Assembly (NCBI GenBank): GCA_964356495.1
Contig: CAYHHR010000002.1
Coordinates: 1-56,699, forward strand
Reading direction: 5' to 3'
DNA length: 56,699 nucleotides
From: an uncultured Gammaproteobacteria bacterium
GTDB lineage: Bacteria; Patescibacteriota; Patescibacteriia; Magasanikbacterales; GWA2-37-8
A program made the position numbers and the translations under genes. Positions 2 to 46,664 of the stretch are shown here, piece after piece (positions within the stretch are counted from its first letter, which is position 1; each line of letters begins with the position of its first letter). The notes under the pieces are model-generated. The model was not told where the DNA came from, ran no database searches, and was given only the letters and a program-made list of their open reading frames with translations.

Positions 2-1351
2 ATGATTGAAAATATTTTGCAGTTTGAAAAAGATTATCCCGGCGCTAAAATTTTTAAACTTGAAACAAATTATCGCTCCAGCCGGGAAATTTTGGAAGTG
101 GCAAACAGTATCATCGAAAATAATCGTGAGCAGTACAAAAAAAGTTTGAAGACGGTCTTGGAAGGTGAGAAGCCCGATCTGTTTCCACAGTTAGACCAGC
201 AGTCCGAGGGACAATTCGTGGCGGAAAAAATCGCGGGGCTGCTCAAGGCCGGCACTTCGCCCTCAGAAATCTCGGTGCTATTCCGGGCCGCTCATCATTC
301 GCAGATGCTTGAAGTTGAGCTTGTCCAACGCGGGATCGAGTATGATTATCGCGGCGGCGTGCGATTTTTCGAGCGCAGCCACATCAAGGATGTGCTGGCA
401 TTTTTGCGTGTTCTAAATAACGTCGCCGATTCGGCCGCCTGGCTGCGCCTCCTCATGCACGAGGAGGGGATCGGGCCAGTCGCAGCGCAGAAAATTATCG
501 AGACGCTTCGCGCTCTGCCATCGGCAAATGTAGTTGTTGACGCGGGTCGTTCCGCGCTTTCCGGCAAGGCGTTGCTTGGTTGGGAAAATTTTGCTATTAT
601 CTGGGGTCAGTTGCTCCAGGCGCCGATCACTGTGCCGAACGAACTCATTCAAACAATTCTGAAATCTTCGTACCGCGATTATCTGGAAACGGAGTTTGTC
701 GACAGTAAAGAGAGAATGCAGGATCTGATGCAGCTCGCAATTTTCGCGGAAAAGTTTGACGACCTTTCGGAATTTCTCGCGAGTACGACGTTGCAGGAAA
801 CGTTCGCTCCTCCGACCTACCTCTCTCCGGCTCTCTCCTCTGCGGAGGCAGAGAGGGATGTTGAACCCTCGCCTCCGCAGAGGAGAGGGCAGGGAGAGGT
901 CTCGCTCACCAAACGGCAGGGTGAGGATTCGGGCAAGGTCGTCCTCTCTACCGTCCATCAGGCCAAAGGTCTCGAATGGGAAGCGGTTTTCATCATCAAT
1001 CTCGCCAACGGTTCGTTTCCGAGCGAGCGTTCGGCGCGCGAACCGAGAGGGCTCGAGGAGGAACGTCGTCTTTTGTATGTGGCAATCACGCGCGCGAAAA
1101 GGAAACTGGTTTTGACTTACCCGATGGCAGGGGGGATGTATGGTGATTTTCTTTCCGGCCCGAGCCGTTTCCTCGACGAGATAAATCCGGATTTTATCAA
1201 CGACCATTCGCTGTTATCCTCGGACGTGACGGTGCTGAATGACCCGTCGGAAGGAGTGGAATATGTGAGCGAAGACCCCGCCTCTTCGGCGGACGGGGCG
1301 CCCAAAAAGTTCAGTCCGGGGAGTTTCCTACGGGATATAAATGATTTGTGA
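2..1351 (+). CDS. UvrD/PcrA/Rep-family ATP-dependent DNA helicase, C-terminal part (5' end outside window)
   Basis: Superfamily-1 helicase motifs are present: LETNYRSS (motif IV), VVLSTVHQAKGLEWEAVF (motif V) and RRLLYVAITRAKRKL (motif VI). The ORF runs to the window edge. It contains the in-frame repeat A1. Confidence 0.85.
   Translation: MIENILQFEKDYPGAKIFKLETNYRSSREILEVANSIIENNREQYKKSLKTVLEGEKPDLFPQLDQQSEGQFVAEKIAGLLKAGTSPSEISVLFRAAHHSQMLEVELVQRGIEYDYRGGVRFFERSHIKDVLAFLRVLNNVADSAAWLRLLMHEEGIGPVAAQKIIETLRALPSANVVVDAGRSALSGKALLGWENFAIIWGQLLQAPITVPNELIQTILKSSYRDYLETEFVDSKERMQDLMQLAIFAEKFDDLSEFLASTTLQETFAPPTYLSPALSSAEAERDVEPSPPQRRGQGEVSLTKRQGEDSGKVVLSTVHQAKGLEWEAVFIINLANGSFPSERSAREPRGLEEERRLLYVAITRAKRKLVLTYPMAGGMYGDFLSGPSRFLDEINPDFINDHSLLSSDVTVLNDPSEGVEYVSEDPASSADGAPKKFSPGSFLRDINDL
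814..907 (+). repeat. Family A palindromic element, copy A1, in frame inside the UvrD-like CDS
   Basis: About 94 bp that is near-identical to 7664..7757. Both copies encode the same 19 aa (ERDVEPSPPQRRGQGEVSL). Nested inverted repeats: ctgcggagg/cctccgcag, and ctctctcc../..ggagaggtctcgct. Confidence 0.85.
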
Positions 1352-1356
1352 TTGTC

Positions 1357-1735: not shown

Positions 1736-1738
1736 TTT

Positions 1739-1993: not shown

Positions 1994-1999
1994 CCGATA

Positions 2000-2204: not shown

Positions 2205-2633
2205 ATGCCTACCCTCAATCAGTTAATTCGAAAGCCGCGCAAGGCCAACACCAGGAAGTCCAAAACGCCGGCTCTCCAGTACTCGGTCGATAATTTACAT
2301 CGCCGTGTCACCAAGTTTCCAAAAGGAAGCGGTTTTAAGCGTGGCGTCTGCACCAAGGTGTATACCACTACTCCAAGAAAACCAAACTCAGCTTTGCGCA
2401 AAGTCGCGAAGGTCCGCCTTTCAAACGGCATGGAAGTTATCGCCTATATTCCCGGCGAAGGTCATAATCTCCAGGAGCACTCCATCGTCCTCATTCGCGG
2501 CGGCCGTGTGAAAGATTTGCCTGGTGTCCGCTACCATATCGTACGCGGTATTTATGATACCCAGGGGATTGCCACTCGCCGACGCGGCCGCAGTCTCTAC
2601 GGCAGCAAGCGCCCGAAAGCAGCTAAGAAATAA
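2205..2633 (+). CDS. rpsL: 30S ribosomal protein S12
   Basis: [13 protein letters not shown]... and the conserved [13 protein letters not shown] motif. Confidence 0.97.
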
Positions 2634-2640
2634 ATTATGA

Positions 2641-2719
2641 TTACGCGGATGCGCTAGAGCGCCACAGATGTCGCAGATGTATCTGTGGTATCGGCGGGCC
2701 TCAAGGCCATCTGCGATAT
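2641..2719 (+). repeat. Family F intergenic repeat, copy F1 (rpsL-rpsG spacer)
   Basis: About 80 bp built from cgcagatg/atctgcg palindromic units. It aligns along its length with 3216..3297 and 22946..23024. Confidence 0.8.
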
Positions 2720-2736
2720 TACATTAACATATATAT

Positions 2737-3213
2737 ATGAGAGGAAAAAAAGCAAAAGTTCGCGTCATTGCGCCAGACCCAAAGTATGGCAATGCGATGA
2801 TCGGCAAATTTATCAATCACGTCATGCAACGCGGTAAGAAATCCGTCGCTATTGAAATAGTTTACCAGGCTCTCGAATCTATCGCCGCTAGCGCCAAGAA
2901 AGACGCGGTAAAAGTTTTCGAAGAGGCTCTCCGCGCCGTCCAACCCCAGCTTGAAATCCGCACCCGCCGCGTCGGTGGCGCCAACTATCAAATCCCGATG
3001 CCGGTCCGAGGCGAACGCCAGAACGCGTTGGCTTTCCGCTGGATTATCGGAGCCGCCCGCGCGAAGAAAGGACAAAAGATGGCCGAGAAATTAGCTACCG
3101 TTTTGCTTGAAGCCAGTCAGGGACTTGGCGACGCCGTGAAGAAGCGCGATGATGTGCATCGCATGGCAGAAGCCAACAAGGCTTTCGCCCACTTCGCAAG
3201 ATTTAGTAAATAA
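2737..3213 (+). CDS. rpsG: 30S ribosomal protein S7
   Basis: Conserved S7 sequence (..VEIRTRRVGGANYQIP..) in the expected position after rpsL. Confidence 0.97.
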   Translation: MRGKKAKVRVIAPDPKYGNAMIGKFINHVMQRGKKSVAIEIVYQALESIAASAKKDAVKVFEEALRAVQPQLEIRTRRVGGANYQIPMPVRGERQNALAFRWIIGAARAKKGQKMAEKLATVLLEASQGLGDAVKKRDDVHRMAEANKAFAHFARFSK

Positions 3214-3215
3214 GA

Positions 3216-3297
3216 TTATCGCAGATGCGCGCGAGCGCCGCAGATATCGCGGATGTATCAATTGTATCTGCGCGGCCTCAAGGACATCTGCGTGATT
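3216..3297 (+). repeat. Family F intergenic repeat, copy F2 (rpsG-fusA spacer)
   Basis: Aligns with F1 and F3: atcgcagatgcgc..cgccgcagat..gtatctgcg..ggcctcaagg.catctgcg. Confidence 0.8.
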
Positions 3298-3338
3298 AAA
3301 CTTATTTTCATATATAATCTTCAAAAATTAACTAATGT

Positions 3339-5444
<2,106 letters not shown>

Positions 5445-5460
5445 TCACCTCTCTAGAGTT

Positions 5461-5489
5461 GTCATCCTGAGGGTTTCACCCGAAGGATC
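5461..5489 (+). repeat. Hairpin element after fusA ('ttgtcat'-prefixed)
   Basis: gtcatcctgagggtttcacccgaaggatc has an interrupted stem (atcct/aggat, gggt/accc). It shares its prefix with the elements at 1352 and 25419. Confidence 0.3.
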
Positions 5490-5538
5490 TCTGTTTCATA
5501 AACTTACACTTTTTTTCATCTCAGAAGTGTATAAGTAT

Positions 5539-5567
5539 TTGTACTAATTCTAAAATTGAAGTATAAT
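5539..5567 (+). promoter_or_regulatory. Sigma70-like promoter, apparently leaderless for the 5574 ORF
   Basis: TTGTAC, 17-nt spacer, TATAAT. The ATG at 5574 begins 7 nt after the -10 element. Confidence 0.4.
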
Positions 5568-5573
5568 ATACAT

Positions 5574-5789
5574 ATGTCAGAAATTTTGCTAAAATATGCA
5601 ACTTTTTTGTTCCCAACACCTTCAATGTTAGAGGGGGTCGGACGAATTTTTGATTTTACGAATTCGTTAGAAAAGTATAATTCTAGCAAAGATGAAAATG
5701 AAGCGGATTTAAAAGCGACATATTTAGATTGGAAAGCGGTTGGGCAGGATATGAATTACGCCATCCATTTGTATGGGCAGGAGAAATAA
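5574..5789 (+). CDS. Small hypothetical protein (71 aa), partner of the DUF2335 gene
   Basis: The ORF-track start at 5556 falls inside the predicted promoter, so the ATG at 5574 is preferred. The ORF overlaps the downstream ORF. The region is AT-rich. Confidence 0.4.
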   Translation: MSEILLKYATFLFPTPSMLEGVGRIFDFTNSLEKYNSSKDENEADLKATYLDWKAVGQDMNYAIHLYGQEK

Positions 5790-5808
5790 AAAAAGAAAGT
5801 TTAACATC

Positions 5809-6246
5809 ATGTCACAGCTTCAATCTTCAAAACAATTCCTAAGTTCTCCAAAAGTAAACGCCATTGTAGCTCATCAGGAATACTCTGGCCCATTACCACA
5901 AGCTGAGCAATTTGAACATTATGAGGGAGTGCTAGTGGGATCGGCTAACCGGATTTTAACAATGGCAGAAAAACAAGCAGATCATAGAAGAAAAATTGAA
6001 AAAGTGGCAATATATTGCAGTAATGCAAGATCATTATTAGGTTTATTTGGGGGCTTAATAATAGCACTGGTGGGTCTGGTTGGCGGGGCATTTTTGATCT
6101 ACAAAGGGAAAAGTTTGGAAGGTTTAGGCGCATTTGTAGCAGTTTTAGTTAGTTTGTTAGTGGCTTATTTTAAAGGATTAAATCGTCAAGAAAAAGATCT
6201 CGGAATGAAAAGTGGAGCAATGCTCGGGAAGAGTTCAGGGAAGTAA
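5809..6246 (+). CDS. DUF2335-like membrane protein
   Basis: YSGPLPQAEQFEHYEGVLVGSANRILTMAEKQADHRR matches the DUF2335 signature as I remember it. Two C-terminal transmembrane (TM) segments follow. An alternative start lies at 5773. Confidence 0.6.
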   Translation: MSQLQSSKQFLSSPKVNAIVAHQEYSGPLPQAEQFEHYEGVLVGSANRILTMAEKQADHRRKIEKVAIYCSNARSLLGLFGGLIIALVGLVGGAFLIYKGKSLEGLGAFVAVLVSLLVAYFKGLNRQEKDLGMKSGAMLGKSSGK

Positions 6247-6262
6247 ATATTTTTTTAAAGAG

Positions 6263-6289
6263 TACCTAGATGCGAGTTAGGTATTTTTT
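6263..6289 (+). terminator. Rho-independent terminator after the DUF2335 gene
   Basis: tacctaN9taggta stem followed by a T6 run. Confidence 0.45.
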
Positions 6290-6333
6290 ATTTTAACTAT
6301 TGATTTTTTCTCAAAAACTGTTATCTTATACCC

Positions 6334-8577
6334 ATGAAATTCAAACTCCACTCCGACTATCAACCCGCCGGCGATCAGCCGAAAGCAATCGAACAGCTGG
6401 TCGATGGCCTTGAAAAAAATTTGAAACGCCAGACTCTCCTCGGCGTCACCGGTTCCGGAAAAACGTTCACAATCGCGAACGTGATTGAACGTGTCCAAAA
6501 ACCAACGCTCGTCATCGCTCACAACAAAACTCTTGCCGCCCAACTCTGCAATGAGTTTCGGGAATTTTTTCCGAAGAATGCCGTGGAATATTTTGTCAGT
6601 TATTATGATTATTATCAGCCGGAAGCGTACATGCCGAATTCGGATACCTATATCGAAAAGGAAGCGATGATCAACGAGGAAATCGACCGTCTTCGTCATG
6701 CCTGCACACAGGCTCTGCTGACACGCGATGATACGATTATCGTTGCGTCTGTTTCCGCGATTTATGGTCTTGGGTCGCCGTTTGAATATGAAAAAATTGT
6801 TTTGCATTTGCGAAAAGGCCAGGAACTCGATCGCCGCGCGATGCTGGAGCAGTTGATCGCGATGCAATTTGAAAGGACGAACAGCGAACTAAAATGCGGT
6901 TCGTTCCGGATGCGCGGACAAGTTTTCGAGATCATGCCGGTCAACGAGGACGCGATTTATCGTTTTGAAATTTCTGCGAGGATAACGCAGATTGAATTGA
7001 TTGACTCAATCACGCGGATAGTGAAACGCGAGGTAGAGGACGTGTGGTTGTTTCCGGCCAGACATTATGTAGTCGGTGAGGAGGGGAGAAAGCAAGCGTT
7101 TGATCGCATCAATAATGAATTGCAGAATCAGCTGGCGCTTTTCGAAAAGCAGGGCAAAGTTTTGGAATACGAAAGGCTGAAGCGCCGGGTCGCATATGAT
7201 TTGCAAATGATTAAGAACGTCGGTTACTGCAACGGCATTGAAAATTATTCTCGCCACTTCGAAGGCAGGACGGAGGGTGAACCCCCGTTTACGCTGCTCG
7301 ATTATTTTTTGCATAGGACTCAGAGGACGGCAAACCCCACCCAACCTCCCCTTGGAAAGGGGAGGGGGACATTTCTCACCGTCATCGACGAATCACACGT
7401 CACGCTTCCGCAAATTCGCAGTATGTACAACGGTGACAAGGCGCGGAAAGATACTTTGGTGGAGCACGGTTTTCGCTTGCCGAGCGCGCGTGATAATCGC
7501 CCGCTTACTTATACTGAGTTTGATTCCAAAATCGGCCAGGCAGTTTATGTTTCGGCGACGCCGAGCGAGTATGAGATGAAAGTTAGCGAACAAATCGTGG
7601 AGCAAATCGTTCGTCCGACCGGTCTTATCGATCCCGAGGTTATCGTGCGTCCGATTGTTGGGCGAGCGAGACCTCTCTCCGGCTCTCTCCTTTGCGAAGG
7701 AGAGAGGGACGTTGAACCCTCGCCTCCGCAGAGGAGAGGGCAGGGAGAGGTCTCGCTGTCACAAATCGAAGATTTAATCTTGCGCATCGAGGAGCGGGTG
7801 AAAAATAACGAACGCGTACTCGTCACCACTCTCACCAAAAAGATGGCTGAGGATTTGACGGAACATTTGAAAGAGAAAAATCTGAAGGTGGCATACCTCC
7901 ACAGCGATGTTAGTACCCTTGATCGCATTGAGGTTATTATGAATTTGCGCCTCGGTAAAAATGATGTCATCGTCGGGGTGAACCTTCTTCGTGAAGGGCT
8001 CGATATGCCGGAAGTTTCATTGGTGGCGATCCTCGACGCCGACAAGGAAGGATTTTTGCGGAGCGAAACAAGTTTGATTCAGACGATCGGCCGCGCCGCG
8101 CGCAATGTGAACGGGCAAGTTGTTTTGTATGCCGACAATATTACTGGTTCGATGAAAAGAGCGATCGAAGAAACCAATCGTCGCCGCGAAATTCAGATGG
8201 CCTACAACAAAGAGCACGGCATTACTCCGAAGACCATCCAAAAAGCGATCCGAAATATTTTGGAGGAATTTGGAATTTCCGCTGATAAAGCGAAGAATCG
8301 CAGGGCTATCGCTCGGCGCGACCGGCTCGCGACGACTACTGAGCTTGATCTGATTGGCGACGGACGCACGATAAGTGTTATAATAAAAGAAAAGGAGACG
8401 CAGATGAAGCAAGCGGCGCAAGAATTGGATTTCGAATTAGCGGCGATTTTGCGAGATGAGATACGAGAGCTGAGAGCAAGAGAAAAAACGACCGGGGTCA
8501 AAGAATTAAAAAAACAAAAAAATAATTATCATACAGGGGTCGTTATTGGCTCCTCCCCCTCACCAAGGGGGAGTTAG
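6334..8577 (+). CDS. uvrB: Excinuclease ABC subunit B
   Basis: GVTGSGKTF (Walker A), VIDESHVT, LVTTLTKKMAEDLT, LREGLD.PEVSLVAILDADKEGFLRS and a C-terminal UVR motif. At 747 aa it is longer than typical UvrB because of three repeat-derived segments. Confidence 0.95.
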   Translation: MKFKLHSDYQPAGDQPKAIEQLVDGLEKNLKRQTLLGVTGSGKTFTIANVIERVQKPTLVIAHNKTLAAQLCNEFREFFPKNAVEYFVSYYDYYQPEAYMPNSDTYIEKEAMINEEIDRLRHACTQALLTRDDTIIVASVSAIYGLGSPFEYEKIVLHLRKGQELDRRAMLEQLIAMQFERTNSELKCGSFRMRGQVFEIMPVNEDAIYRFEISARITQIELIDSITRIVKREVEDVWLFPARHYVVGEEGRKQAFDRINNELQNQLALFEKQGKVLEYERLKRRVAYDLQMIKNVGYCNGIENYSRHFEGRTEGEPPFTLLDYFLHRTQRTANPTQPPLGKGRGTFLTVIDESHVTLPQIRSMYNGDKARKDTLVEHGFRLPSARDNRPLTYTEFDSKIGQAVYVSATPSEYEMKVSEQIVEQIVRPTGLIDPEVIVRPIVGRARPLSGSLLCEGERDVEPSPPQRRGQGEVSLSQIEDLILRIEERVKNNERVLVTTLTKKMAEDLTEHLKEKNLKVAYLHSDVSTLDRIEVIMNLRLGKNDVIVGVNLLREGLDMPEVSLVAILDADKEGFLRSETSLIQTIGRAARNVNGQVVLYADNITGSMKRAIEETNRRREIQMAYNKEHGITPKTIQKAIRNILEEFGISADKAKNRRAIARRDRLATTTELDLIGDGRTISVIIKEKETQMKQAAQELDFELAAILRDEIRELRAREKTTGVKELKKQKNNYHTGVVIGSSPSPRGS
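7321..7369 (+). repeat. Family B element, copy B1, in frame in uvrB
   Basis: ggcaaaccccacccaacctccccttggaaaggggaggggga encodes ANPTQPPLGKGRG just before the DESH box. It matches 8998..9050 and 45742..45783. Confidence 0.85.
7664..7757 (+). repeat. Family A element, copy A2, in frame in uvrB
   Basis: Near-identical to A1. It inserts about 31 aa between VRPIVG and QIEDL, which are contiguous in canonical UvrB. The terminal arms (agcgagacctctc...) are inverted. Confidence 0.9.
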
Positions 8578-8598
8578 AGGGGGTTTGCCTTCCTCTGC
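8548..8598 (-). repeat. Family B element, copy B2 (reverse orientation)
   Basis: ggctcctccccctcaccaagggggagttagagggggtttgcc is the reverse complement of the B consensus. It supplies the last roughly 10 codons and the stop codon of uvrB. Confidence 0.8.
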
Positions 8599-8630
8599 CC
8601 TGCCGAGAGTTGCCTGTCGTTCAATCGTTT

Positions 8631-9059
8631 ATGTCCAAAACAAACAATCTCACCGTACAAAAAAATCGCCGTCAGGACTTAAGGAGCAACATGTCTGTAC
8701 CGGAAAAAATATTATGGAAATGGATTAAAAATGAACAACTCGGCTATAAATTTCGTCGACAACATGGTATTAAACAGTTTATTGCGGATTTCTATTGTCC
8801 AATGTTGAGTTTAGTTATTGAAATCGACGGTCGGATTCATGGTGAGGAGCCTATTGCGACAAAAGATAAATATCGGGATAATGTTATGGTTGGACTGGGA
8901 CTAATTGTTAAACGTTATACGGCTACAGAAATAAATAATAATTTAGATTGGGTTTTGAGTGATTTGAAGAATTGTTGTAGCGAACTTGCCTCGGCGCCAC
9001 AGAGGAAGGCAAACCCCACCTACCCTCCCCTTGGAAAGGGGAGGGAGCCAATGTCGTGA
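8631..9059 (+). CDS. DUF559 (Vsr/restriction-endonuclease-like) domain protein
   Basis: PEKILWKWIKNEQLGYKFRRQH...ADFYCP..LVIEIDG..H matches the DUF559 pattern. The C-terminal roughly 17 aa are encoded by repeat B3. An alternative TTG start lies at 8610. Confidence 0.7.
   Translation: MSKTNNLTVQKNRRQDLRSNMSVPEKILWKWIKNEQLGYKFRRQHGIKQFIADFYCPMLSLVIEIDGRIHGEEPIATKDKYRDNVMVGLGLIVKRYTATEINNNLDWVLSDLKNCCSELASAPQRKANPTYPPLGKGREPMS
8998..9050 (+). repeat. Family B element, copy B3
   Basis: cagaggaaggcaaaccccacctaccctccccttggaaaggggagggagcc is inverted relative to B2 across the DUF559 gene. Confidence 0.85.
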
Positions 9060-9083
9060 TTAATGTGATTGAATAGTGTAACA

Positions 9084-9716
9084 ATGAAAAACCTAACTAA
9101 AAAATTAATCACAATAGTATCAGCGCTGTTTGTAATATTAGGAATTATTTTTTTAATTTTTGTAAATATTGATATCTTGCAGGAAAAAGCGTTTGTTTTT
9201 TTTCCACCCGACGTGCCCAGCGCCACGGTTGGCCTTATCTTTGGCGGTGGTCTGAACAAAGATGGCAGTTTGAATTCAATGGTCGCGGATCGGGTAGCCG
9301 CCGGAGTGGCCCTGCTACGTTCGGGTAAAGTCGGCGAACTTATGATCACAGGCGATGATGGTAGAATTCACAGTAACGAAGTCGATGCGATGAAAAATGC
9401 GGCGCTCGAGTTAGGCGTTCCGGCGGACAAAATTCTTGTTGATCGCCACGGTTATCGCACTTATGACAGTTGCTATCGCGCGGCCAAAGTTTATGGGATC
9501 AAAAGAGTAATCGCCGTTTCACAATTTTTTCATTTGCCGAGGATAATTTTCCTTTGTGAGCATTTCGGGATCAGCACCACCGGTGTCGCGGCGGACTTTC
9601 GGAATTATGGGTTTGATTCAATTTATATGAATATTCGTGAAGTCGGAGCGAGGCTAAAAGCGTGGTGGCAGGTGAATATTTCCAGACCGGAACCGTTGGT
9701 ATTAAGCAAAGATTAA
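9084..9716 (+). CDS. SanA/YdcF (DUF218) family membrane protein
   Basis: N-terminal TM segment followed by GLIFGGG...ITGDDG...E...M...A...GVP...I..D..G..T..S, typical of SanA/DUF218. An alternative TTG start lies at 9069. Confidence 0.7.
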   Translation: MKNLTKKLITIVSALFVILGIIFLIFVNIDILQEKAFVFFPPDVPSATVGLIFGGGLNKDGSLNSMVADRVAAGVALLRSGKVGELMITGDDGRIHSNEVDAMKNAALELGVPADKILVDRHGYRTYDSCYRAAKVYGIKRVIAVSQFFHLPRIIFLCEHFGISTTGVAADFRNYGFDSIYMNIREVGARLKAWWQVNISRPEPLVLSKD

Positions 9717-9810
9717 AGCGATTGGATTTAGCATAGCGGACAACCTTTTTTTATGCTAAAATAGCTCTGGACGAATTGAGGCCAATTTTTAATGCTCAAA
9801 CTCCCTTACC

Positions 9811-11154
9811 ATGGAACCAATTCTCAAATCCGAACATATTCGAGTCACCTATAACGAAGGAAAAGACAACGAGTTTACCGCTTTGAACGATGTTAATCTT
9901 GAAGTTTACCCTCAAGAATATCTTATTTTTTTTGGACCTTCCGGTTGCGGTAAATCGACTATGCTTTATACTCTCCTCGGCATCCAGTCTCCGTCCAGCG
10001 GGAAGGTTTTTGTAAATGGTCAGGACAGTTCAAATTTTTCGGAAGCGGAGAAGAGCGTGATCTCCTCGCAATTTTTTGGTATTGTTTTTCAAAATTTTAA
10101 TTTGATTTATTCATTGAATGTTGCTGATAATGTCACTTTGCCGCAGGTATTTATAAACGTGCCGGCGCGGGAACGCAAGGAAAAAGCTGATGCCCTTATG
10201 GAACGCTTCGGGATTGCGAGCCGTTCTCATAACCTGCCGGCTAATTTATCCGGCGGTCAGCAGCAGCGTGTTGCCATTTGCCGCGCCCTCATAAACGACC
10301 CGCAGATTCTCCTTGCCGATGAACCGGTCGGAAATCTTGATAGCGAATCCGCCAGGGTGGCGATGCAAACGATAAGTGAAATTAATAAAAAAGATAAGAA
10401 AACTATTATTTTGGTTACGCACGACCCAAATTATTTGCCATTTGCCGATCGAATTTATTATTTTAGGGATGGAAAAGTGGAGCGCGTGGTGAAAAATGAA
10501 CATCCGCTCATGCCGAAAGATGTGCTCGTGAAGGTGTCTGAAAAAGAAGCGGCGGCGGTTTCGAAGGATACTTTCAAAGACATGGAAAGGTTGGCGCATA
10601 TTCACCCTTCGCTTTCCGTTGATGAACTCAAGGCTTGGATTTTGACGCAGTATCTTCTTGATGAGATGAATGTCGAACAAATGGAGCGCCTGGAAAAAAA
10701 CATGGAAGCGTTGCTCGCCGGCGCGTTGACGTTTCCTGAATTTAAGACCAGCCTTGAAACGCCTTTTTTGAAAGGCGGGGTTGGTCTTTATTATTTGACC
10801 GCGAAGAAGTACGCCGATCGGATTGAAGAGGTAATTGAGCTTGTTAAAACATTCAAGACGATCGCTTTCAAAAATAGCCACGAAAGCAGGAAGGAATTGA
10901 CTCATCTACTTCGCCATTTTGTTTTGAGCGAGTACACCTCCGACCTTTCGTATTCGCAGATTGTTCGTTTGGAAAAGGCCATCAATTCCAGGATGAACAA
11001 GGAGATTACGGCCGATGAATTTTCAGAGCTGTTGACCCGCTCGGTCATGGATGGCGGCGCGCATCTTCGCTTTGCTACCGCGGTTCATATCGGCCAGAAA
11101 TTAGAAATTATTTTGGCGGCCCTGCAACAACATATGACTTATGCAACTAGCTGA
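9811..11154 (+). CDS. ABC transporter ATP-binding protein (MacB/LolD/FtsE-like) with a roughly 220-aa C-terminal extension
   Basis: Walker A GPSGCGKST, signature LSGGQQQRVAICRAL, Walker B ILLADEPVGNLD. The extra C-terminal region shows an internal duplication. Confidence 0.9.
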   Translation: MEPILKSEHIRVTYNEGKDNEFTALNDVNLEVYPQEYLIFFGPSGCGKSTMLYTLLGIQSPSSGKVFVNGQDSSNFSEAEKSVISSQFFGIVFQNFNLIYSLNVADNVTLPQVFINVPARERKEKADALMERFGIASRSHNLPANLSGGQQQRVAICRALINDPQILLADEPVGNLDSESARVAMQTISEINKKDKKTIILVTHDPNYLPFADRIYYFRDGKVERVVKNEHPLMPKDVLVKVSEKEAAAVSKDTFKDMERLAHIHPSLSVDELKAWILTQYLLDEMNVEQMERLEKNMEALLAGALTFPEFKTSLETPFLKGGVGLYYLTAKKYADRIEEVIELVKTFKTIAFKNSHESRKELTHLLRHFVLSEYTSDLSYSQIVRLEKAINSRMNKEITADEFSELLTRSVMDGGAHLRFATAVHIGQKLEIILAALQQHMTYATS

Positions 11155-12337
11155 TCTATTTTCATTGTCAACGCGCATGTTCCGGACGCGGCCGGCTCGT
11201 ACCTGGTTGACGGTCCTCGGCATTAGCATCGGCATCAGCGCCGTGCTGTTTTTGGTGTCGCTGGGGTATGGGCTTCAAAATATAATTTTACAGAAAATAG
11301 TTTTTAATCAGGCTTTGCTTAGCCTGACTGTTACGCCCGCCAATGAGCTGATTGTTTTCAACAATAATGCCCTGGATCAACTCAAAAAAATTCCGAAAGT
11401 CGCGGATATCGCCGCGGAGACGAATTTTCCCGGGCAGGCTATCCTGGATCAGCTACATGGGACTACCGACGTGAAAGGTGTGGACGCGCGTTTTTTTGGT
11501 TACGCCGGTGTCACAGTGAGGACAGGTAAATTATTCGATGAGAAAGAGACTGACCAGGTCGTGATTTCCGATGCCGTACTGAAGCTCTGGGGCGTAAAGG
11601 AGGACAAGGATGTTATCGGCAAACAAATTCATTTGCAAATTTTACCAGCCAAATCGACCAGTTCGTCGACTCCGACGATGGTGGAGCTTTCTCATTTATA
11701 TACGATTAAAGGCGTCATCGATGACCCGCAAGACAGCTATGTTTTTGTTCCTCTTTCAGAATTAGCAAAAGATACCGAGATTGTCCGTTATGATCAGGCG
11801 AGAGTAAGAGTTGAGACAGACAAAGATATTGAACCGGTCAAAGAAATTGCCATTAGCAAGGGTTATCAAGTAGCCTCGCTTTCCGAAACGGTTGACCAGG
11901 CAAAGAAAATTTTTCAGGTTATTCAAATAGTGCTCGGCTTATTTGGCGCGGTAGCGTTGGTGGTTTCTTCTATCGGCATGTTTAATACTATGACCGTTAC
12001 CCTGCTTGAACGTACTAACGAGATCGGTATTATGCGCGCGATTGGCGCCACTAAAGCGAGTCTCAAAAAAATGTTTTTGTTTGAGTCGTTAATTATCGGA
12101 TTTTTGGGCGGGGTAGTAGGAGAAGCGATCGGTATCGCGCTTGCGGAAATATTTAATTTTGTCGTAAATAGTTTGGCCCACCGTTTTGGAGGCTCTGCCG
12201 CTGATTTGTTTTTTTTCCCTAGCTGGTTCCTTGGCGGTGTCATTATACTTTCCATGGTTATCGGTTTTCTTTCCGGTATTTTTCCGGCGCGCCGCGCGTC
12301 CAATCTTGAGCCTCTTGAAGCGCTTCGTTATAAATAA
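11141..12337 (+). CDS. ABC transporter permease, FtsX/MacB type
   Basis: TM1, a large extracytoplasmic domain, then three C-terminal TM segments with ..ERT.EIGIMRAIGA.. Overlaps the ATPase gene by 14 nt. Confidence 0.85.
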   Translation: MQLADLFSLSTRMFRTRPARTWLTVLGISIGISAVLFLVSLGYGLQNIILQKIVFNQALLSLTVTPANELIVFNNNALDQLKKIPKVADIAAETNFPGQAILDQLHGTTDVKGVDARFFGYAGVTVRTGKLFDEKETDQVVISDAVLKLWGVKEDKDVIGKQIHLQILPAKSTSSSTPTMVELSHLYTIKGVIDDPQDSYVFVPLSELAKDTEIVRYDQARVRVETDKDIEPVKEIAISKGYQVASLSETVDQAKKIFQVIQIVLGLFGAVALVVSSIGMFNTMTVTLLERTNEIGIMRAIGATKASLKKMFLFESLIIGFLGGVVGEAIGIALAEIFNFVVNSLAHRFGGSAADLFFFPSWFLGGVIILSMVIGFLSGIFPARRASNLEPLEALRYK

Positions 12338-12349
12338 TTTTATGGGTAT

Positions 12350-12379
12350 TTGACAATAGAAGGTAAGGCAGTGTAAAAT
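12350..12379 (+). promoter_or_regulatory. Putative promoter for the 12389 ORF
   Basis: TTGACA, 18-nt spacer, TAAAAT. Confidence 0.35.
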
Positions 12380-12388
12380 TTTTTAACT

Positions 12389-12820
12389 ATGAACAGTCAA
12401 CATCTCAAGAAAACGCTCCAGCTAATTCGCCGCACTGGTGATAAAGGAATAATTATCGATGAGGAAAGCGATGAACTTTTTGTGCTCATGAATGTTGAGG
12501 CGTATGAAAAGATGCTGCCACCGGTTGAAGAAATGTTGACCAACCCACCCCTACCCCGCCCAAGCGGGGAATTGCCGCGACAGGACCTTACTCGTTTAGA
12601 GGAATCGCTAGATGATTTTGTTCCGGATGATTTTGCTGAAGTAGAGGAACCACGTCGTGTCGCCCCTAGCATACCGGCCGCTCCGATTAGTTTCGCAAAA
12701 GCGGTCGAGCCGGTGGCATTTGAATTCAAACAACATAGCGTCAATCGCGAAGAAAGCCTCGCGGATGTTCCTCACGACGGCGAAGAAGAGGAGAAATTTT
12801 ACCTCGAACCAGTGGAATAG
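12389..12820 (+). CDS. Hypothetical acidic protein with a Phd/YefM-like N-terminus
   Basis: 143 aa. The N-terminus (..ELFVLMNVEAYEKM) resembles the Phd/YefM antitoxin fold. The C-terminal half is acidic. Contains the in-frame repeat C1. Confidence 0.45.
   Translation: MNSQHLKKTLQLIRRTGDKGIIIDEESDELFVLMNVEAYEKMLPPVEEMLTNPPLPRPSGELPRQDLTRLEESLDDFVPDDFAEVEEPRRVAPSIPAAPISFAKAVEPVAFEFKQHSVNREESLADVPHDGEEEEKFYLEPVE
12539..12572 (+). repeat. Family C element, copy C1, in frame
   Basis: ccaacccacccctaccccgcccaagcggggaatt encodes NPPLPRPSGEL. It matches 46009..46042 in the same frame and 25385..25417 as reverse complement. Confidence 0.85.
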
Positions 12821-18394: not shown

Positions 18395-19108
18395 ATGGGT
18401 CACAAAGTCCATCCAAAAATTCATCGCATCCCTTACATATTTCCTTGGGATTCACGCTGGTTCGCGAAGCGCGATCAGATGCCTGGTTTTTTGAAACAAG
18501 AAATTGCGATCAGGGAATTTTTGTTAAAGAAATTAAAAGAAGCCAGCGTTGATTCGATCAGCATCGAGAGAACGCCAAAAGATCTTTCGATCACTATCCT
18601 CGCCGGCAAACCGGGCGTGGTAATCGGCCGCGGGGGACAGGGACTTGAATTGATCCGAAAAGAAATCGAAAAGAAAATTTTACAATTTAAAACAAAAGTC
18701 AAATTAAATATTCAGCCGGTTCAACAGCCAGCTTTGTCAGCCGCGATTGTGGCGCAGAACATTGTTCTTGATATCGAAAAGCGTCTGCCGTTCCGCCGCG
18801 TTATGAAACAGACGATTGAGAAAGTGATGGCCGCCGGCGCCAAAGGAGTAAAGATCGGTATGGCTGGTCGCCTCAACGGCGTGGAAATCGCCCGTCGCGA
18901 AAAATTGGCCGCCGGTAAAATGTCGCTTATAACTTTACGCAGCAATGTTGATTACGCGCTCGCCGAAGCACACACGATGTATGGCAAGATCGGCGTCAAA
19001 GTCTGGATTTATTTTGGAGAAACTTTTGCGAAGAAAGACAAGTTTGAAAAATCCGCCTCTACGGCGGATCAGCCGAAGAGGCTGAAAGGCGACGAATCCA
19101 AAGTCTAA
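18395..19108 (+). CDS. rpsC: 30S ribosomal protein S3
   Basis: MGHKVHP...R......W.S.WFA and the KH-domain motif GVVIGRGG. The C-terminal tail is encoded by repeat J2. Confidence 0.96.
19052..19087 (+). repeat. Family J element, copy J2, in frame at the rpsC 3' end
   Basis: tccgcctctacggcggatcagccgaagaggctgaaa differs from J1 at only a few positions. It encodes [12 protein letters not shown]. Confidence 0.8.
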
Positions 19109-19119: not shown

Positions 19120-19545
19120 ATGTTATTACCAAAGAAAGTACAACACAGAAAATGGCACAAAGGCCGCCGACGCCAGAAGGGTGTTGCAACGCGCGCGAAT
19201 TCGATTGATTTCGGAGATTTCGGTCTCAAGAGCCAGGGCTACGGTTGGGTAACCAGCCGCCAGATTGAGTCTGCCCGCCGTGTTCTTACTCGTTATGTCC
19301 GCCGCGGTGGCAAGGTTTGGATTCGAATTTTCCCGGATAAACCAGTCACCATGAAAGGCAACGAAACCCCGATGGGTGGCGGAAAGGGCGCTCCGGATCA
19401 TTATGTCGCCGTCGTGAAGCCAGGAACAATGTTGTTTGAAATGGTAGGTGTTACCCGCGTACAAGCTATGGAAGCCATGAATATGGCCAGTTACAAATTC
19501 GGCGTCAAGACCAAGTTTATTGAGAAAAATTTTATAACCGTTTAA
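19120..19545 (+). CDS. rplP: 50S ribosomal protein L16
   Basis: MLLPKK.K.RK...GR..G.A.RG....FG.FGL. Confidence 0.96.
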
Positions 19546-25381: not shown

Positions 25382-25384
25382 GTA

Positions 25385-25417
25385 TTCCCCGCTTGGGCGG
25401 GGTAGGGGTGGGTTGGC
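25385..25417 (-). repeat. Family C element, copy C2 (intergenic, reverse orientation)
   Basis: ttccccgcttgggcggggtaggggtgggttggc is the reverse complement of C1 and C3. Confidence 0.85.
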
Positions 25418-25570
25418 GTTGTCATTGTCCTCCTCTTCCTTAAGAGGAGGTGCCCAACAGGGCGGAGGAGTTTCGTCGTCGATTTGTGTCGTCGCGAACC
25501 CGACTCCTCCGTCTCGCGCGAGCGAGCCACCTCCCCTTGAGAAAGGGGAGGACAGACAGTGCCTTACCAT
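25418..25570. repeat. Cluster of nested G/C-rich hairpin elements (family D)
   Basis: Three hairpins: cctcctctt-cctt-aagaggagg; ggaggagt...actcctcc; and gagcgagccacctccccttgagaaaggggagg, which looks like a hybrid of the family A arm and the family B hairpin. Confidence 0.7.
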
Positions 25571-31918: not shown

Positions 31919-32488
31919 CTAGTCTTTTTTTAACTTAATTAGATCGATAAATTCACGTGCATTTTTTGAAATTCTGATGTTATAGCGAGTTTTTCTTCCT
32001 TTAACCAAAATTGTATATTTGTTGGCTTTGAATTTTAATGAGTCAATAATCTCCATTACATCTATGGCAAGTGAAGGTGTTGTGGTTACAAAATTCACCA
32101 TTATGTAGCCTCTGTCATTATAAATCGAACCGTCGGTTTCTATTAGCCCTCTTAGGCAGGCAATTGAATATTTTGCATCACTTTTAATCCAATTTGGTAT
32201 CTTGACTTTTTGCACGTTTTTACTGCCGCCCTTCGCCTTCCAGCCCAATAGTTGTTCCCACTTATTCGAATAGCAGCTTATATCGACGTAGCTGTCTTTA
32301 CCGCCCTTAATAGTCGATACTTTATTTTTCGGAGCCACTAGCTGAATTGATTCACAAATGCGTTTAATAAGTTTTGGATAATTTGTATCGCAGGTTATTC
32401 TCAATCTAACAGCCCGGCCATTTGGATTAGAAAGATTTCCATCGCCAAGCGCTAGCCCTATTACGTAGGCTAGAATTTTCTTTTTCAT
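31919..32488 (-). CDS. Free-standing double-motif LAGLIDADG homing-endonuclease-like protein
   Basis: Two LAGLIDADG motifs: LAYVIGLALGDGNL and IACLRGLIETDGSI. The ATG at 32488 is preferred because the longer ORF-track start overlaps tRNA-Leu. Confidence 0.75.
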   Translation of the reverse strand: MKKKILAYVIGLALGDGNLSNPNGRAVRLRITCDTNYPKLIKRICESIQLVAPKNKVSTIKGGKDSYVDISCYSNKWEQLLGWKAKGGSKNVQKVKIPNWIKSDAKYSIACLRGLIETDGSIYNDRGYIMVNFVTTTPSLAIDVMEIIDSLKFKANKYTILVKGRKTRYNIRISKNAREFIDLIKLKKD

Positions 32489-32504
32489 ATTTGAATTGGT
32501 ATAG

Positions 32505-32586
32505 TGCCGCCGGTCGGAATCGAACCGACATGCCGTTAAGCGCACGATTTTGAGTCGTGAGTGTCTACCAGTTCCACCACGGCGGC
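32505..32586 (-). tRNA. tRNA-Leu (anticodon CAA)
   Basis: Cloverleaf read on the minus strand: GCCGCCG acceptor stem, anticodon arm CACGA-CTCAAAA-TCGTG, long variable arm, and GGTTCGATTCC T-arm. CCA is not encoded. Confidence 0.85.
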
Positions 32587-44358: not shown

Positions 44359-44463
44359 CTCCCTCCCTCTATTAGGGGAGGGGCAGGAGAGGGGTATCGT
44401 TGGGGATTTTCGTTCGTGGGGATACCCCCATCCTCGCCTTCCCCCTAATAGGGGGAAGGGAAA
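44359..44463 (+). repeat. Family E composite element, copy E2 (about 105 bp)
   Basis: ctccctccctctattaggggaggg + gcaggagagggg..gttcgtgggg..atacccccatc..ccttccccctaatagggggaaggg aligns with E1. Confidence 0.8.
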
Positions 44464-44504: not shown

Positions 44505-46664
44505 ATGGTTCATATGGATCTCCAAACTAGGATCGAAGCTCTAAACAAAGTCGGGAAGACGACTGCTAAAAAGCTGGAACGGCTTGGTATTTTTACTGTT
44601 AATAATTTACTTCATCATTATCCGTTTCGTTACGAAGATTTTAGCCGCGTCGCGCCGATCAAGGATTTGCGCGAGGGCGATTCGGTGACGGTGAAAGGCG
44701 TGATTGAATTGATCGCCAATCGTCGGATTCGCAACCGACGCAGTCTTACCGAAGCCCTGCTTACCGATGAGACCGGCAGTATCAGGCTGATCTGGTTTAA
44801 TCAGCCGTACCTCACAAAAAATCTCGAGACCGGCACGGAAGTATATATTTCCGGCGTGATAAAACATGATGCGCTCGGTTTGCAGTTCGTGAGTCCCGCC
44901 TATGAATTAGCCTCGCGACGTAATATTCACACCGCTCGCCTGGTGCCGATGTATCCTCTCACCGAAGGGATCACACAGAAGCAGGTGAGATTTTTGGTTG
45001 AGCAATCATTGCCGGCCGCGCCAACCATAAGTGATTGGTTGCCGGAGAAAATTAAGAAGGAAAATAATCTGATCGCGTTGCAGGGGGCGATTAAGCAAAT
45101 TCATTTTCCAGAATCTGACGCGCAAATGAATTTGGCCACCGAGCGTCTGAAGTTTGATGAATTATTTTTGATTCAGCTCCAGGCGGAACTCGCTCGCCAC
45201 GAGCAAACTATTCTAAGGGCGCCAGTGTTGGCATTTCATGAGGAAGAAATAAAAAAGTTTGTGGCTGGTCTGCCGTTTACTCTCACCAAGGATCAAAAAA
45301 TTTCGGCTTGGGAAATTCTACAAAATATTGCCGGCGAAGTGCCGATGAACCGGCTGTTGTCCGGCGACGTCGGATCCGGCAAGACCGTGGTCGCCGCCGT
45401 TGCTCTCTACAATACCGTTCTTTCCGGTTTCCAGGGGATCATGATGGCGCCAACGGAGATTTTGGCAACGCAGCATTTTGATTCGGTCTGCAGATTGTTG
45501 CAGGATCAGACGCTAGTATTGTTTACTCGTTCACATCATTTAATATTTAAGAATCGAGAGAAGTTCGAGGTTTCAAAGAAAGAACTGCAAAAGATAATCG
45601 CCACCGGCGAAGCGAACGTGATCATTGGGACGCATGCTTTGCTGTCGGAAGGGGTTGAGTTTAAAAATGTTGGCCTCGTGGTCGTGGACGAACAGCATCG
45701 TTTCGGAGTATTGCAGAGGAAAGTGATTAAGAGCAAAGGAGGGCAAACCCCACCTAACCTCCCCTTGGAAAGGGGAGGGAGCCACGCCGTGCACTTTCTC
45801 AGCATGACGGCGACGCCGATCCCGCGTTCGCTCGCTCTGATGGTCTATGGTGATCTTGATGTTTCTGTAATCAGAGAAATGCCGCCGGGAAGAAAACCGG
45901 TTATGACCAGGATCGTCGAGCCGCGAAATCGCGACAAGGCTTATGAATTTATTCGAAAAGAAGTTGGGAAAGGCGGACAGGTGTTTGTGGTTTGTCCGTT
46001 GATTGACGCCAACCCACCCCTACCCCGTCCGAGCGGGGACTTCATTGTGAATGATAAAAAATCGGTAATGACTGAATACAAAAAATTATCTGAAAATATT
46101 TTTCCGAATTTGAGAGTCAATTATCTCCACGGTAAGATGAAAGGTGAAGAAAAAGAAAAAATAATGGCGCAGTTTAAAAATAAGGAATATGATATTCTGG
46201 TTTCGACTTCGGTGATCGAAGTCGGAGTGGATGTGCCAAACGCGACCATTATGTTGATCGAGGGAGCCGAGCGGTTTGGGTTGGCGCAGCTGCATCAGTT
46301 CAGAGGGAGAGTGGGGAGGGGCGACCGGCAGTCTTATTGTTTTGTATTTACGGACAGCGAGACCTCTCCCTACCCTCTCCTCTGTGGAGGCGAGGGTTCA
46401 CGAACTATGGAGCGGTTGCGTTTTTTTGAAAAACATCAGAACGGTTTCGAGCTGGCCGAAAAAGATTTGGAGTTGCGTGGTCCCGGGGAAGTCTATGGGA
46501 CGACGCAGAGCGGAATGATGCAACTCCGCCTAGCTAAGCTTTCGGACACCGCGTTAATAAAAAAAGCCCGCGAGTCAGCGCGAGTTATTTCATCTCAACT
46601 TTCAGAATTCCCGGAGCTCATTAAAAAAATGAAAGAGTGGGAAGAGTCGGTGCACTTAGAATGA
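44505..46664 (+). CDS. recG: ATP-dependent DNA helicase RecG
   Basis: Wedge/OB N-terminal domain, then GDVGSGKT, VVDEQHRFGV, MTATPIPRSLA, VIEVGVDVPNA and FRGRVGRG. Carries three in-frame repeat insertions. Confidence 0.95.
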   Translation: MVHMDLQTRIEALNKVGKTTAKKLERLGIFTVNNLLHHYPFRYEDFSRVAPIKDLREGDSVTVKGVIELIANRRIRNRRSLTEALLTDETGSIRLIWFNQPYLTKNLETGTEVYISGVIKHDALGLQFVSPAYELASRRNIHTARLVPMYPLTEGITQKQVRFLVEQSLPAAPTISDWLPEKIKKENNLIALQGAIKQIHFPESDAQMNLATERLKFDELFLIQLQAELARHEQTILRAPVLAFHEEEIKKFVAGLPFTLTKDQKISAWEILQNIAGEVPMNRLLSGDVGSGKTVVAAVALYNTVLSGFQGIMMAPTEILATQHFDSVCRLLQDQTLVLFTRSHHLIFKNREKFEVSKKELQKIIATGEANVIIGTHALLSEGVEFKNVGLVVVDEQHRFGVLQRKVIKSKGGQTPPNLPLERGGSHAVHFLSMTATPIPRSLALMVYGDLDVSVIREMPPGRKPVMTRIVEPRNRDKAYEFIRKEVGKGGQVFVVCPLIDANPPLPRPSGDFIVNDKKSVMTEYKKLSENIFPNLRVNYLHGKMKGEEKEKIMAQFKNKEYDILVSTSVIEVGVDVPNATIMLIEGAERFGLAQLHQFRGRVGRGDRQSYCFVFTDSETSPYPLLCGGEGSRTMERLRFFEKHQNGFELAEKDLELRGPGEVYGTTQSGMMQLRLAKLSDTALIKKARESARVISSQLSEFPELIKKMKEWEESVHLE
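45742..45783 (+). repeat. Family B element, copy B4, in frame in recG
   Basis: ggcaaaccccacctaacctccccttggaaaggggagggagcc is read in a different frame from B1 and B3 (QTPPNLPLERGGS). It lies between helicase motifs II and III. Confidence 0.85.
46009..46042 (+). repeat. Family C element, copy C3, in frame in recG
   Basis: ccaacccacccctaccccgtccgagcggggactt encodes NPPLPRPSGDF, in the same frame as C1. Confidence 0.85.
46356..46402 (-). repeat. Family A half-element, copy A3 (reverse orientation), in frame in recG
   Basis: agcgagacctctccctaccctctcctctgtggaggcgagggttca is the reverse complement of the right half of A1 and A2. It encodes ETSPYPLLCGGEGS. Confidence 0.8.

Follow-up and report, generated by a model that had tools for sequence, protein, structure and literature searches.

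The uvrB gene in a 56,699-nt stretch of DNA (hereafter the window; assembly GCA_964356495.1, contig CAYHHR010000002.1, Magasanikbacterales) carries three repeat-derived segments within its reading frame. These segments very probably represent translated, tolerated insertions of non-autonomous triplex-hairpin elements, with uvrB having been struck three separate times. The elements belong to the known BoxC/triplex-motif class of repeats and, in this genome of a groundwater bacterium of the candidate phyla radiation (CPR), close to Magasanikbacteria, behave like the Rickettsia palindromic elements (RPEs). One of the three segments is the left end of a cassette that carries a DUF559 endonuclease gene. 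The features of this locus are as follows.

6334..8577, + strand: uvrB coding sequence, host of the three repeat-derived segments; open reading frame (ORF) of 747 aa with a solved-structure match
7321..7371, + strand: B1, a single B unit; triplex-motif core at 7335-7365; translation QRTANPTQPPLGKGRGT
7664..7757, + strand: A2, a two-armed A element of 94 nt, long hairpin; translation RARPLSGSLLCEGERDVEPSPPQRRGQGEVS
8545..8607, - strand: B2, left inverted end of the DUF559 cassette; 8545-8577 provides the last 10 uvrB codons and TAG
8631..9059, + strand: DUF559 (Vsr-like PD-(D/E)XK) endonuclease gene; PF04480, 1e-23; PDB 3HRL, 4e-10
8990..9052, + strand: B3, right inverted cassette end; translation ending in APQRKANPTYPPLGKGREPMS and a stop
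9069..9716, + strand: DUF218 gene, displaced by the cassette; Pfam match and synteny in relatives L001-L004

The 747-aa uvrB product matched UvrB structures in the PDB with an E-value of 4e-238. A first-pass annotation of this DNA, made from the sequence alone, had proposed that three in-frame repeat-derived segments are present, and this was borne out by the reading frame, the alignment to PDB sequences and the comparison of repeats. Opposite B1, the PDB UvrBs were shown to have an 18-aa gap between LLDYF and FLTVIDESH, while relative to the closest orthologs GGKRD is replaced by RTQRTANPTQPPLGKGRGT, corresponding to a net gain of 42 nt (14 codons). The previously estimated size of about 16 aa was therefore near, and the segment ends five residues upstream of the DESH box. 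The B1 motif reads CCCCACC-caa-CCTCCCC-ttggaaa-GGGGAGG, and the unit shares 93-95% identity with the copies at 9000-9050 and 45734-45784. For A2, the annotated insertion of about 31 aa between VRPIVG and QIEDL corresponds to residues 445-475, which are unmatched in the PDB UvrBs, where VRP..G directly joins QI(D/E)DL; as the nearest CPR orthologs carry a 6-aa linker (KKEINQ) at this site, the net gain amounts to 25 aa (75 nt). A2 is 95.5% identical to 819-906, and as single-stranded DNA it was predicted to fold with -36.3 kcal/mol (z -5.6). Compared with solved UvrBs, the product extends past the UVR domain by a C-terminal tail that matches B2 (motif CCCCCTC-taa-CTCCCCC-ttggtga), which is read as ATT GGC TCC TCC CCC TCA CCA AGG GGG AGT TAG, i.e. 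IGSSPSPRGS followed by the stop codon, in agreement with the roughly ten terminal codons and stop assigned to this unit earlier. Peptides spanning the inserts would be TANPTQPPLGK, PLSGSLLCEGER, DVEPSPPQR and NNYHTGVVIGSSPSPR.

Alignment with orthologs showed the inserts of this gene to be lineage specific. The closest UvrB orthologs (P0004 and P0005, ~90% aa identity) lack both B1 and A2, and at the DNA level L001-L004 are exactly 42 nt shorter at the B1 site. The A2 site is empty in L001/P0005, while a different palindrome is present there in L002-L004. Independent support for the arrangement was obtained from L192 (ENA ERZ1292624; 13.5 kb, single-sample, Hainich groundwater well H41), which matches window positions 1-12910 with 99.9% nucleotide identity, 12 single-nucleotide polymorphisms (SNPs) and no gaps, and which contains the same uvrB-DUF559-DUF218 order and the 747-aa gene. 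Since L192 reproduces the arrangement, misassembly, which the first-pass annotation had raised as an alternative, is excluded.

Copies of the same repeat families (A, B and C) were identified elsewhere in the window, as listed below together with a triplex-motif doublet.

813..906, + strand: A1, full A element, in frame in a UvrD/PcrA-like helicase ORF (2..1351)
12540..12572, + strand: C1, C unit in frame in a hypothetical ORF (12389..12820); TNPPLPRPSGE
25384..25419, - strand: C2, intergenic C unit directly after secY
44361..44458, no strand: inverted triplex-motif doublet directly upstream of recG (strict triplex-motif scan; inverted pair)
44505..46664, + strand: recG coding sequence with three in-frame units (B4, C3 and half A); Pfam RecG wedge and helicase domains
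45734..45784, + strand: B4, one B unit within recG, translated in another frame as KGGQTPPNLPLERGGS; 95.3% identity
46006..46042, + strand: C3, single C unit in recG; ANPPLPRPSGD
46353..46400, - strand: A3, single A arm (half element) in recG; SETSPYPLLCGGEGS

The window contains 11 A, B and C copies, of which seven (B1, A2, A1, B4, C3, A3 and C1) are located in frame within coding sequences and two more form gene 3' ends. Recurrence in other genes, as claimed in the first-pass annotation, was thus confirmed (UvrD-like, recG and DUF559), whereas recurrence in intergenic DNA was found to be restricted to few copies, being limited to the part of B2 past the stop codon, an incomplete B hairpin (25529-25552) and members of other families. 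The A1 stretch at 819-906 is 95.5% identical to A2 over 88 nt and folds with -37.6 kcal/mol (z -7.0), while A3 is 95.8% identical to 7713-7760 over 48 nt. With up to three mismatches allowed, the 33-nt B core yielded three matches in the window versus none expected (100 shuffles), and self-BLAST E-values of the window copies ranged from 1e-13 to 1e-33.

Empty sites were also observed for these other copies. L071, the closest recG ortholog locus (P0242), lacks all three recG inserts (B4, +42 nt; C3, +24 nt; half A, +33 nt), and A1 is missing from the orthologous UvrD of L002 and L003. The repeat copies are mutually 93-96% identical, whereas identity between the host genes and their orthologs reaches only 80-83%. 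Furthermore, the copies are used in three different frames or strands: a B unit is read as QRTANPTQPPLGKGRG in uvrB and as KGGQTPPNLPLERGGS in recG, and from the reverse strand at the uvrB stop codon, while uvrB and the DUF559 gene both read QR.ANPT.PPLGKGR from B. The segments therefore represent lineage-specific DNA insertions, given that orthologs lack them, that copies occur in other genes and frames and that an independent assembly agrees; the empty ortholog sites, the identity at the DNA level and the varied frames and strands uphold the earlier view of mobile or dispersed repeats as opposed to ancestral UvrB sequence. The five internal inserts for which orthologs were compared represent net gains of 42, 75, 42, 24 and 33 nt and are stop-free in the frame used, with both flanks of each insert carrying on the orthologous reading frame. 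Lengths that are multiples of three and the lack of a stop in the frame used argue that the inserts are translated and that the protein core is left intact. The coding compatibility of the repeats is attributed to the units being short and GC-rich. The notion that the elements are built to be open in all six frames was rejected, as they have three to six open frames, no more than composition-matched shuffles.

In-frame copies are not confined to the window: in L005 and L007 (metagenome-assembled genome H41-bin286_1), prfB, ksgA and a Sua5-like gene contain numerous in-frame units of families A, B and C. Within L007:1-6000, the density is extreme, with approximately 16 A/B/C units observed in 5.5 kb, distributed over prfB, the Sua5/YrdC-like gene, ksgA and one more ORF. 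The metagenome pattern GGCAAACCCC N8-9 CCCCTT retrieved 120 loci, of which ~70% are chance matches, and a hairpin filter was applied; 13 of 32 metagenomic B copies are located deep within long ORFs. The inserts contain no Pfam domain, and an Rfam scan at gathering thresholds returned three tRNAs only, with no family matching the repeat units. No transposase or REP-associated tyrosine transposase (RAYT; REP, repetitive extragenic palindromic) was found among the scanned window ORFs.

Judged by their sequence, the units belong to the intrastrand triplex motifs known as BoxC/PIT/TM. They are ~42-51 nt in size and occur as singlets (B1), inverted doublets (A2) and cassette ends (B2 and B3). In each unit, a C-rich tail is joined through a 3-nt loop (TAA or TCG) to a C-rich arm of 7 nt, which a second loop of 7 nt connects to the complementary G-rich arm; on the C-rich strand, the tail is the mirror image of the 5' arm. 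Among 62 B copies, which were drawn from the window, from related genomes and from metagenomes and had been selected for their hairpin (hairpin covariation was consequently not used as evidence), the tail-arm mirror match was complete (7/7) in 40 and 6/7 in 19, so that 59 match at six or more positions. At least eight arm variants were observed, including CCTCCCC/CCCCTCC, CTCCCCC/CCCCCTC, TTCCCCC/CCCCCTT and GTCCCCC/CCCCCTG (arm/tail), and comparison of a copy's own tail with another arm type gave a 7/7 mirror in only 4%. As the tail mirrors the arm across these variants, tail and arm covary. The strict triplex-motif finder was passed by B1, B2, B3, B4 and the left arm of A2. The arms of family A, the inverted termini of which are GCGAGACCTCTC...GAGAGGTCTCGC, and family C display the same layout as B. 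B doublets in L005, L007, L077, L093 and L191 combine a CTCTAAC-type arm with a TCCTCGC-type arm. The B tail is represented by GGCAAACCCC(A/T/C)(C/T)C-TAA/TCG and contains neither GTAG nor CGTC on either strand.

The third uvrB segment was acquired together with a gene. In L001-L004, uvrB ends in AKK and overlaps DUF218 by 14 nt, and the DUF559 gene is missing between the two. In the window, by comparison, ~510 bp separate uvrB from DUF218, containing in order B2 (reverse), the DUF559 gene and B3 (forward). The ancestral uvrB TAA is out of frame, and the ORF therefore continues into B2. B2 and B3 (8990-9052) constitute an inverted repeat of 63 nt with 79% complementarity, and the B3 stretch at 9000-9050 is 93.5% identical to B1. 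The ATG start of the DUF559 gene at 8631 is consistent with homolog alignments, and ~20 C-terminal residues of the product are derived from B3. All of its closest homologs (59-79% identity) terminate in QR(K/T)ANP(T/L), the translated B tail, and B is therefore the conserved terminus of this DUF559 gene. The D...ExDG..H...D..R core is retained (D53, E64, D66, G67, H70, D79 and R82), which makes the product a predicted nuclease. Classification as a component of a known defence system was rejected, since PADLOC and PHROGs matches were weak and domain-level only.

B-type cassettes with the hairpin facing outward and the GGCAAACCCC tail inward were identified in L005, L006, L007, L008, L009, L152 and L163, in seven different genomic neighbourhoods. 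B doublets resemble such a cassette minus its gene, and B singlets also occur. L007 encodes a second DUF559 paralog (41% identical), which is flanked by C and not by B copies, the two cassettes being 1 kb apart.

To map the inserts on the UvrB fold, as the first-pass annotation had proposed, an AlphaFold2 model was generated from an alignment of 116 sequences (predicted local distance difference test (pLDDT) 78, predicted TM-score 0.71), a version based on 22 sequences being unusable (pLDDT 52). The model aligned to 1T5L with a TM-score of 0.91, normalised to the target. Segments with pLDDT <50 comprised residues 105-111, 333-344 (B1), 445-472 (A2), 657-669 and 725-747 (the tail with B2), and the insert segments are positioned between confidently predicted secondary-structure elements. 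In the model, the inserts are thus predicted to form low-pLDDT loops and a tail around the UvrB core.

The linker at the B1 site is 6 aa long in 41 of the 116 UvrB orthologs and at least 15 aa in ~30, while the A2 linker measures 8-10 aa in 57 and at least 19 aa in ~42. The peptides inserted at these sites in different orthologs are mutually unrelated and repeat-derived in appearance; in ortholog P0069, a B unit is present at the A2 site in another frame. Based on this alignment, insertions have repeatedly struck the B1 and A2 sites, which are hot spots throughout this CPR class. Because the exact positions vary within a linker of 6-8 residues, the recurrence is better explained by selection for permissive sites than by precise targeting. 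Two further hot spots among the UvrB orthologs, at window residues 228-236 and 512-519, are both empty in the window protein; inserts at these positions include the B-like NPSQSPLGKGKG in P0018 and GRVVSPPLGGRGRGGAV in P0070. The palindrome at the A2 site of uvrB in L002-L004 (L002:9290-9380) consists of GTCATTCTGAGTGAAACGAAGAATC...GGATCCTTCACTGTCGCTCAGGATGAC and encodes SVILSETKN...SFAFAQDDNG. Peptides resembling VILSEAK...LRMT/QDD are common among many UvrB orthologs, suggesting another widespread repeat family.

To assess the association between DUF559 genes and repeats, 66 DUF559 loci from many phyla were retrieved by protein pattern only, 59 of which had sufficient flanking DNA. Matching upstream and downstream repeats of at least 34 bits flank 33 of these 59 genes (56%). 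The corresponding counts were 1 for 299 shifted positions and 7 for 312 other genes of the same loci, three of these seven being themselves further DUF559 genes. Strict triplex motifs had a density of 1.02 per kb up to 200 nt from DUF559 genes versus 0.06 per kb elsewhere, demonstrating a link between DUF559 and these repeats. A 134-aa non-DUF559 ORF (L057:4115-4519) is also flanked by repeats of at least 34 bits. In three loci from non-CPR phyla (L044:5774-6517, L064:2658-3601 and L013:5796-6488), DUF559 is located between direct repeats of 140-207 nt with 92-96% identity, each of which holds a triplex-type hairpin, showing that cassette geometry is not uniform.

In Escherichia coli K-12, the DUF559 gene ycjD adjoins fabI (envM), the locus at which BoxC was first described according to PMC4666352 (reference 46 therein). 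The motif TMECO no. 9 is located ~170 nt past the 3' end of ycjD, a truncated type-B motif covers the ycjD stop codon and a 39-nt duplicate of the ycjD 3' end is present between the two motifs. These copies were identified via Table 1 of PMC4666352, having been missed by the strict finder due to a stem mismatch. One copy of ycjD is carried by 3378 of 5426 complete E. coli genomes. In a spread sample of chromosomes, the median number of BoxC-like places was 18 in ycjD-positive (n=37) and 8 in ycjD-negative genomes (n=23; p = 1.5e-9, not phylogeny-corrected). The K-12 segment comprising TMECO 9 and ycjD (L193, K-12 1346000-1354000; 5164-5815; ~650 bp) is a presence/absence polymorphism, with 3377 of the 5426 genomes having it.

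These results can be combined in a model in which B1 and A2 inserted into two permissive surface linkers of UvrB, and the cassette into the uvrB/DUF218 overlap. Frame-keeping, stop-free inserts are predicted to give rise to disordered loops or a tail while the UvrB core stays intact, and only frame-compatible insertions pass selection. In a further, proposed part of the model, the gene within its own tail-hairpin units would represent the master copy, with inverted doublets and singlets as non-autonomous offspring, and the DUF559 nuclease would act on the folded tail-hairpin ends to copy or move cassette, doublets and singlets. Such a system would resemble that of REP and RAYT but would rest on another nuclease fold and on an end able to form a triplex or hairpin. 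We give about an even chance to the proposal that DUF559 acts on folded ends and mobilises all three forms. The wider proposal, that DUF559 genes are the autonomous partners of BoxC/PIT/TM repeats throughout bacteria, the CPR offspring of which routinely colonise coding sequences and are translated, is put forward more tentatively, its probability being slightly short of even.

Several observations weigh against this model or parts thereof. The repeat counts cover only 56.7 kb of this genome. No target-site duplication (TSD) was seen at B1, B4, C3 or A2, clean junctions were not found, and a few target codons were also replaced at both B sites (uvrB and recG); the only possible trace of a TSD is the 5-nt GTCGT beside the DUF559 cassette. 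At the left junctions, the empty site resembles the element tail over 5-8 nt (GGAGGCAAAC versus GGACGGCAAAC in uvrB; GACAACCC versus GCCAACCC in recG). These junctions, three cases only, hint at a break-and-copy process with microhomology, not cut-and-paste. The repeats flanking DUF559 are inverted at some genes and direct at others, and a single transposon-like architecture therefore cannot cover all cases. A partner gene for family A was looked for and none was found. In E. coli, the copy-number contrast for ycjD is confounded by phylogroup, and the fabI-sapF interval of O157:H7 Sakai is occupied by an efflux-pump island and does not provide a clean empty ycjD site. Finally, we infer translation of the inserts from the preserved frame, and DUF559 is a candidate enzyme whose action on the repeats is deduced from sequence associations.

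The alternative with the greatest weight is that the repeats were spread by another agent, i.e. a transposase encoded elsewhere, template switching at structured DNA or recombination, with DUF559 being a passenger or a repair nuclease; in the latter version, a host DUF559 would be kept beside triplex motifs to process their structures. This explanation fits the lack of mechanism-defining junctions or a TSD, the absence of a gene associated with family A and the 5-8 nt similarity at the left junctions, which is compatible with microhomology-primed copying, while E. coli triplex motifs are known to stall polymerases and to mark rearrangement hot spots without a known mobility gene (PMC4666352). 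It does not readily account for the presence of flanking repeats at 56% of DUF559 genes versus ~1-2% of other genes in the same loci, for a link that spans many phyla, or for two DUF559 paralogs in one genome that each have their own repeat family, and no transposase or RAYT was encoded by the scanned window ORFs. We consider this alternative a serious one, although its probability is clearly below even.

The remaining explanations concern the uvrB segments themselves. CPR genomes are known for insertions in rRNA genes, and the segments could by analogy be removed in an intron- or intein-like manner before the protein is made, leaving a canonical UvrB. At 42-94 nt or 14-31 aa, however, they are far below intron or intein size and match no Rfam family, and all five net gains are stop-free multiples of three, a constraint that would be needless if the segments were spliced out, which renders removal very improbable. 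Slightly less probable still, and similar to each other in this respect, are ancestry and artefact. Ancestral or functionally selected UvrB loops, resembling one another through a shared peptide module, would be consistent with the extra residues observed at both positions in many Magasanikbacteria UvrBs, but the closest orthologs lack the segments, the inserts found at these sites in different orthologs show no sequence relationship, disorder is predicted for the segments, and what the copies have in common is DNA and not peptide, given their use in other frames and on the opposite strand. Likewise, in a metagenome-assembled contig misjoins are possible at short repeats, such that chimeric joins from assembly or binning might have placed the segments in a uvrB that really lacks them; this conflicts with the identical arrangement in ERZ1292624 (99.9%, 12 SNPs, no gaps) and with the orthologous frame on both flanks. 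Insertion of triplex-hairpin elements, followed by translation, thus remains the preferred explanation.

Among known systems, the closest in anatomy are the BoxC/PIT/TM(ECO) repeats (Bergler 1992; Hoyne 2000; Holder et al. 2015, PMC4666352). Known from 1992 onwards and present in hundreds of genomes, these mark rearrangement hot spots, and no mobility function was found for them (PMC4666352). Both have the order tail, 3-nt loop, 5' arm, loop and 3' arm with a tail that mirrors the arm, and both are built from homopurine/homopyrimidine blocks rich in G/C. Both also show two loop types, one being TAA (TTA) and the other TCG here and CCG in E. coli, a frequent single A mismatch in the tail, and singlets as well as tail-to-tail inverted doublets that pair two arm types. 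In contrast to TMECO, which was reported to be always intergenic and never near mobility functions (Holder et al., PMC4666352), many copies described here are intragenic and in frame, one family bounds a DUF559 gene and the stems measure 7 bp and not 9-10 bp; only the CPR B family has the conserved GGCAAACCCC tail.

In behaviour, the elements are comparable to the RPEs of Alphaproteobacteria (~100-150 bp; Ogata et al. 2000, as summarised in PMC10969869), which also comprise several short palindromic families present in frame in unrelated housekeeping genes at fold-compatible positions, with no transposase known according to that summary. The likeness to RPEs noted in the first-pass annotation was corroborated by the alignments and the AlphaFold2 model, in which the in-frame insertions occupy fold-compatible positions. 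Compared with RPEs as described in the summary, the present units are 42-94 nt, are found in Patescibacteria, have a triplex-motif layout and possess a candidate partner gene. They are not classified as RPEs because size and host phylum differ, and were set apart from RPE-1 to RPE-10 by description. In line with the earlier statement that no equivalent was known for CPR genomes, none was found in the literature searched.

REP/REPIN sequences and their RAYT transposases (Bertels & Rainey 2011, PMC3116915) resemble the present elements in several respects: a short GC hairpin whose 5' tail is conserved, the occurrence as singlets and as inverted doublets, a small gene, present once, between inverted copies of its own repeat family, paralog-specific repeats and fewer repeats where the gene is lacking. 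The gene flanked here, however, specifies a PF04480 Vsr-like nuclease and not an HUH Y1 transposase, the GTAG/CGTC tag is absent and numerous copies lie within genes. Vsr-like homing endonucleases (Dassa et al. 2009, PMC2677866; I-Bth0305I, PMC3424549) similarly represent small Vsr-fold nucleases in selfish mobile genes, but these sit within introns or inteins, or between the halves of a split intein, and their homing is directed at a defined allele, whereas the DUF559 cassettes are free-standing, bounded by triplex hairpins and located at unrelated sites. Miniature inverted-repeat transposable elements with in-frame insertions (ERIC, Nezha, Correia and others; reviewed in PMC10969869) are likewise small, non-autonomous and structured and occasionally generate intragenic in-frame fusions; such elements have terminal inverted repeats derived from an insertion sequence and leave a TSD. 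Family A has inverted termini as well, but neither an insertion-sequence parent nor a convincing TSD was found here.

The findings suggest that reduced CPR genomes tolerate translated selfish DNA at scale in essential repair, translation and ribosomal genes, a phenomenon previously regarded chiefly as a Rickettsia curiosity. Approximately a quarter to a third of the 116 UvrB orthologs carry unrelated repeat-derived inserts at these two linkers, with consequences for gene calling, ortholog alignment, phylogenomics and structure prediction of CPR proteins. Moreover, DUF559 represents a concrete candidate enzyme for BoxC/PIT/TM repeats, as indicated by the cross-phylum statistics, the ycjD locus and the E. 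coli copy-number contrast, and the proposal offers a possible function for a very large family of unknown function. As the link includes ycjD, the old question of BoxC mobility is directly testable in E. coli. In one published screen, DUF559 was among the gene families enriched for flanking invertible repeats; no paper linking DUF559 to repeats was found in the literature searched, and as far as searched the association between DUF559 and triplex repeats is undescribed and open to experiment.

Additional repeats were observed in the window. The secY-adk spacer (25341-26499) spans 1.1 kb and is gene-poor, which is unusual in a compact CPR genome; it contains the C unit at 25384-25419, the partial B hairpin at 25529-25552 and an inverted triplex-motif doublet (26028-26060 / 26095-26127). 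Families E and G are hairpin repeats that provide tails in ribosomal-operon proteins: family E (15583-15630 and 19040-19087) forms the C-terminal tails of the L3 ORF (14953..15654) and ORF 18395..19108, and the family G copy at 23999-24042 forms that of the L15 ORF (23583..24050), its other copy (43291-43334) being located directly after tRNA-Val. Two families are intergenic, namely D (2644-2715, 3220-3292 and 22946-23019), present in the S12/S7/fusA and L18/S5 spacers, and F, a 62-nt pair with 97% complementarity (19564-19625 and 38479-38540) found after ORF 19120..19545 of the ribosomal-protein operon and between topA and dprA. Finally, a free-standing ORF of 208 aa on the - strand (31919..32545), which abuts or overlaps tRNA-Leu (32504-32586), was shown to encode a LAGLIDADG_3 homing-endonuclease-like domain.

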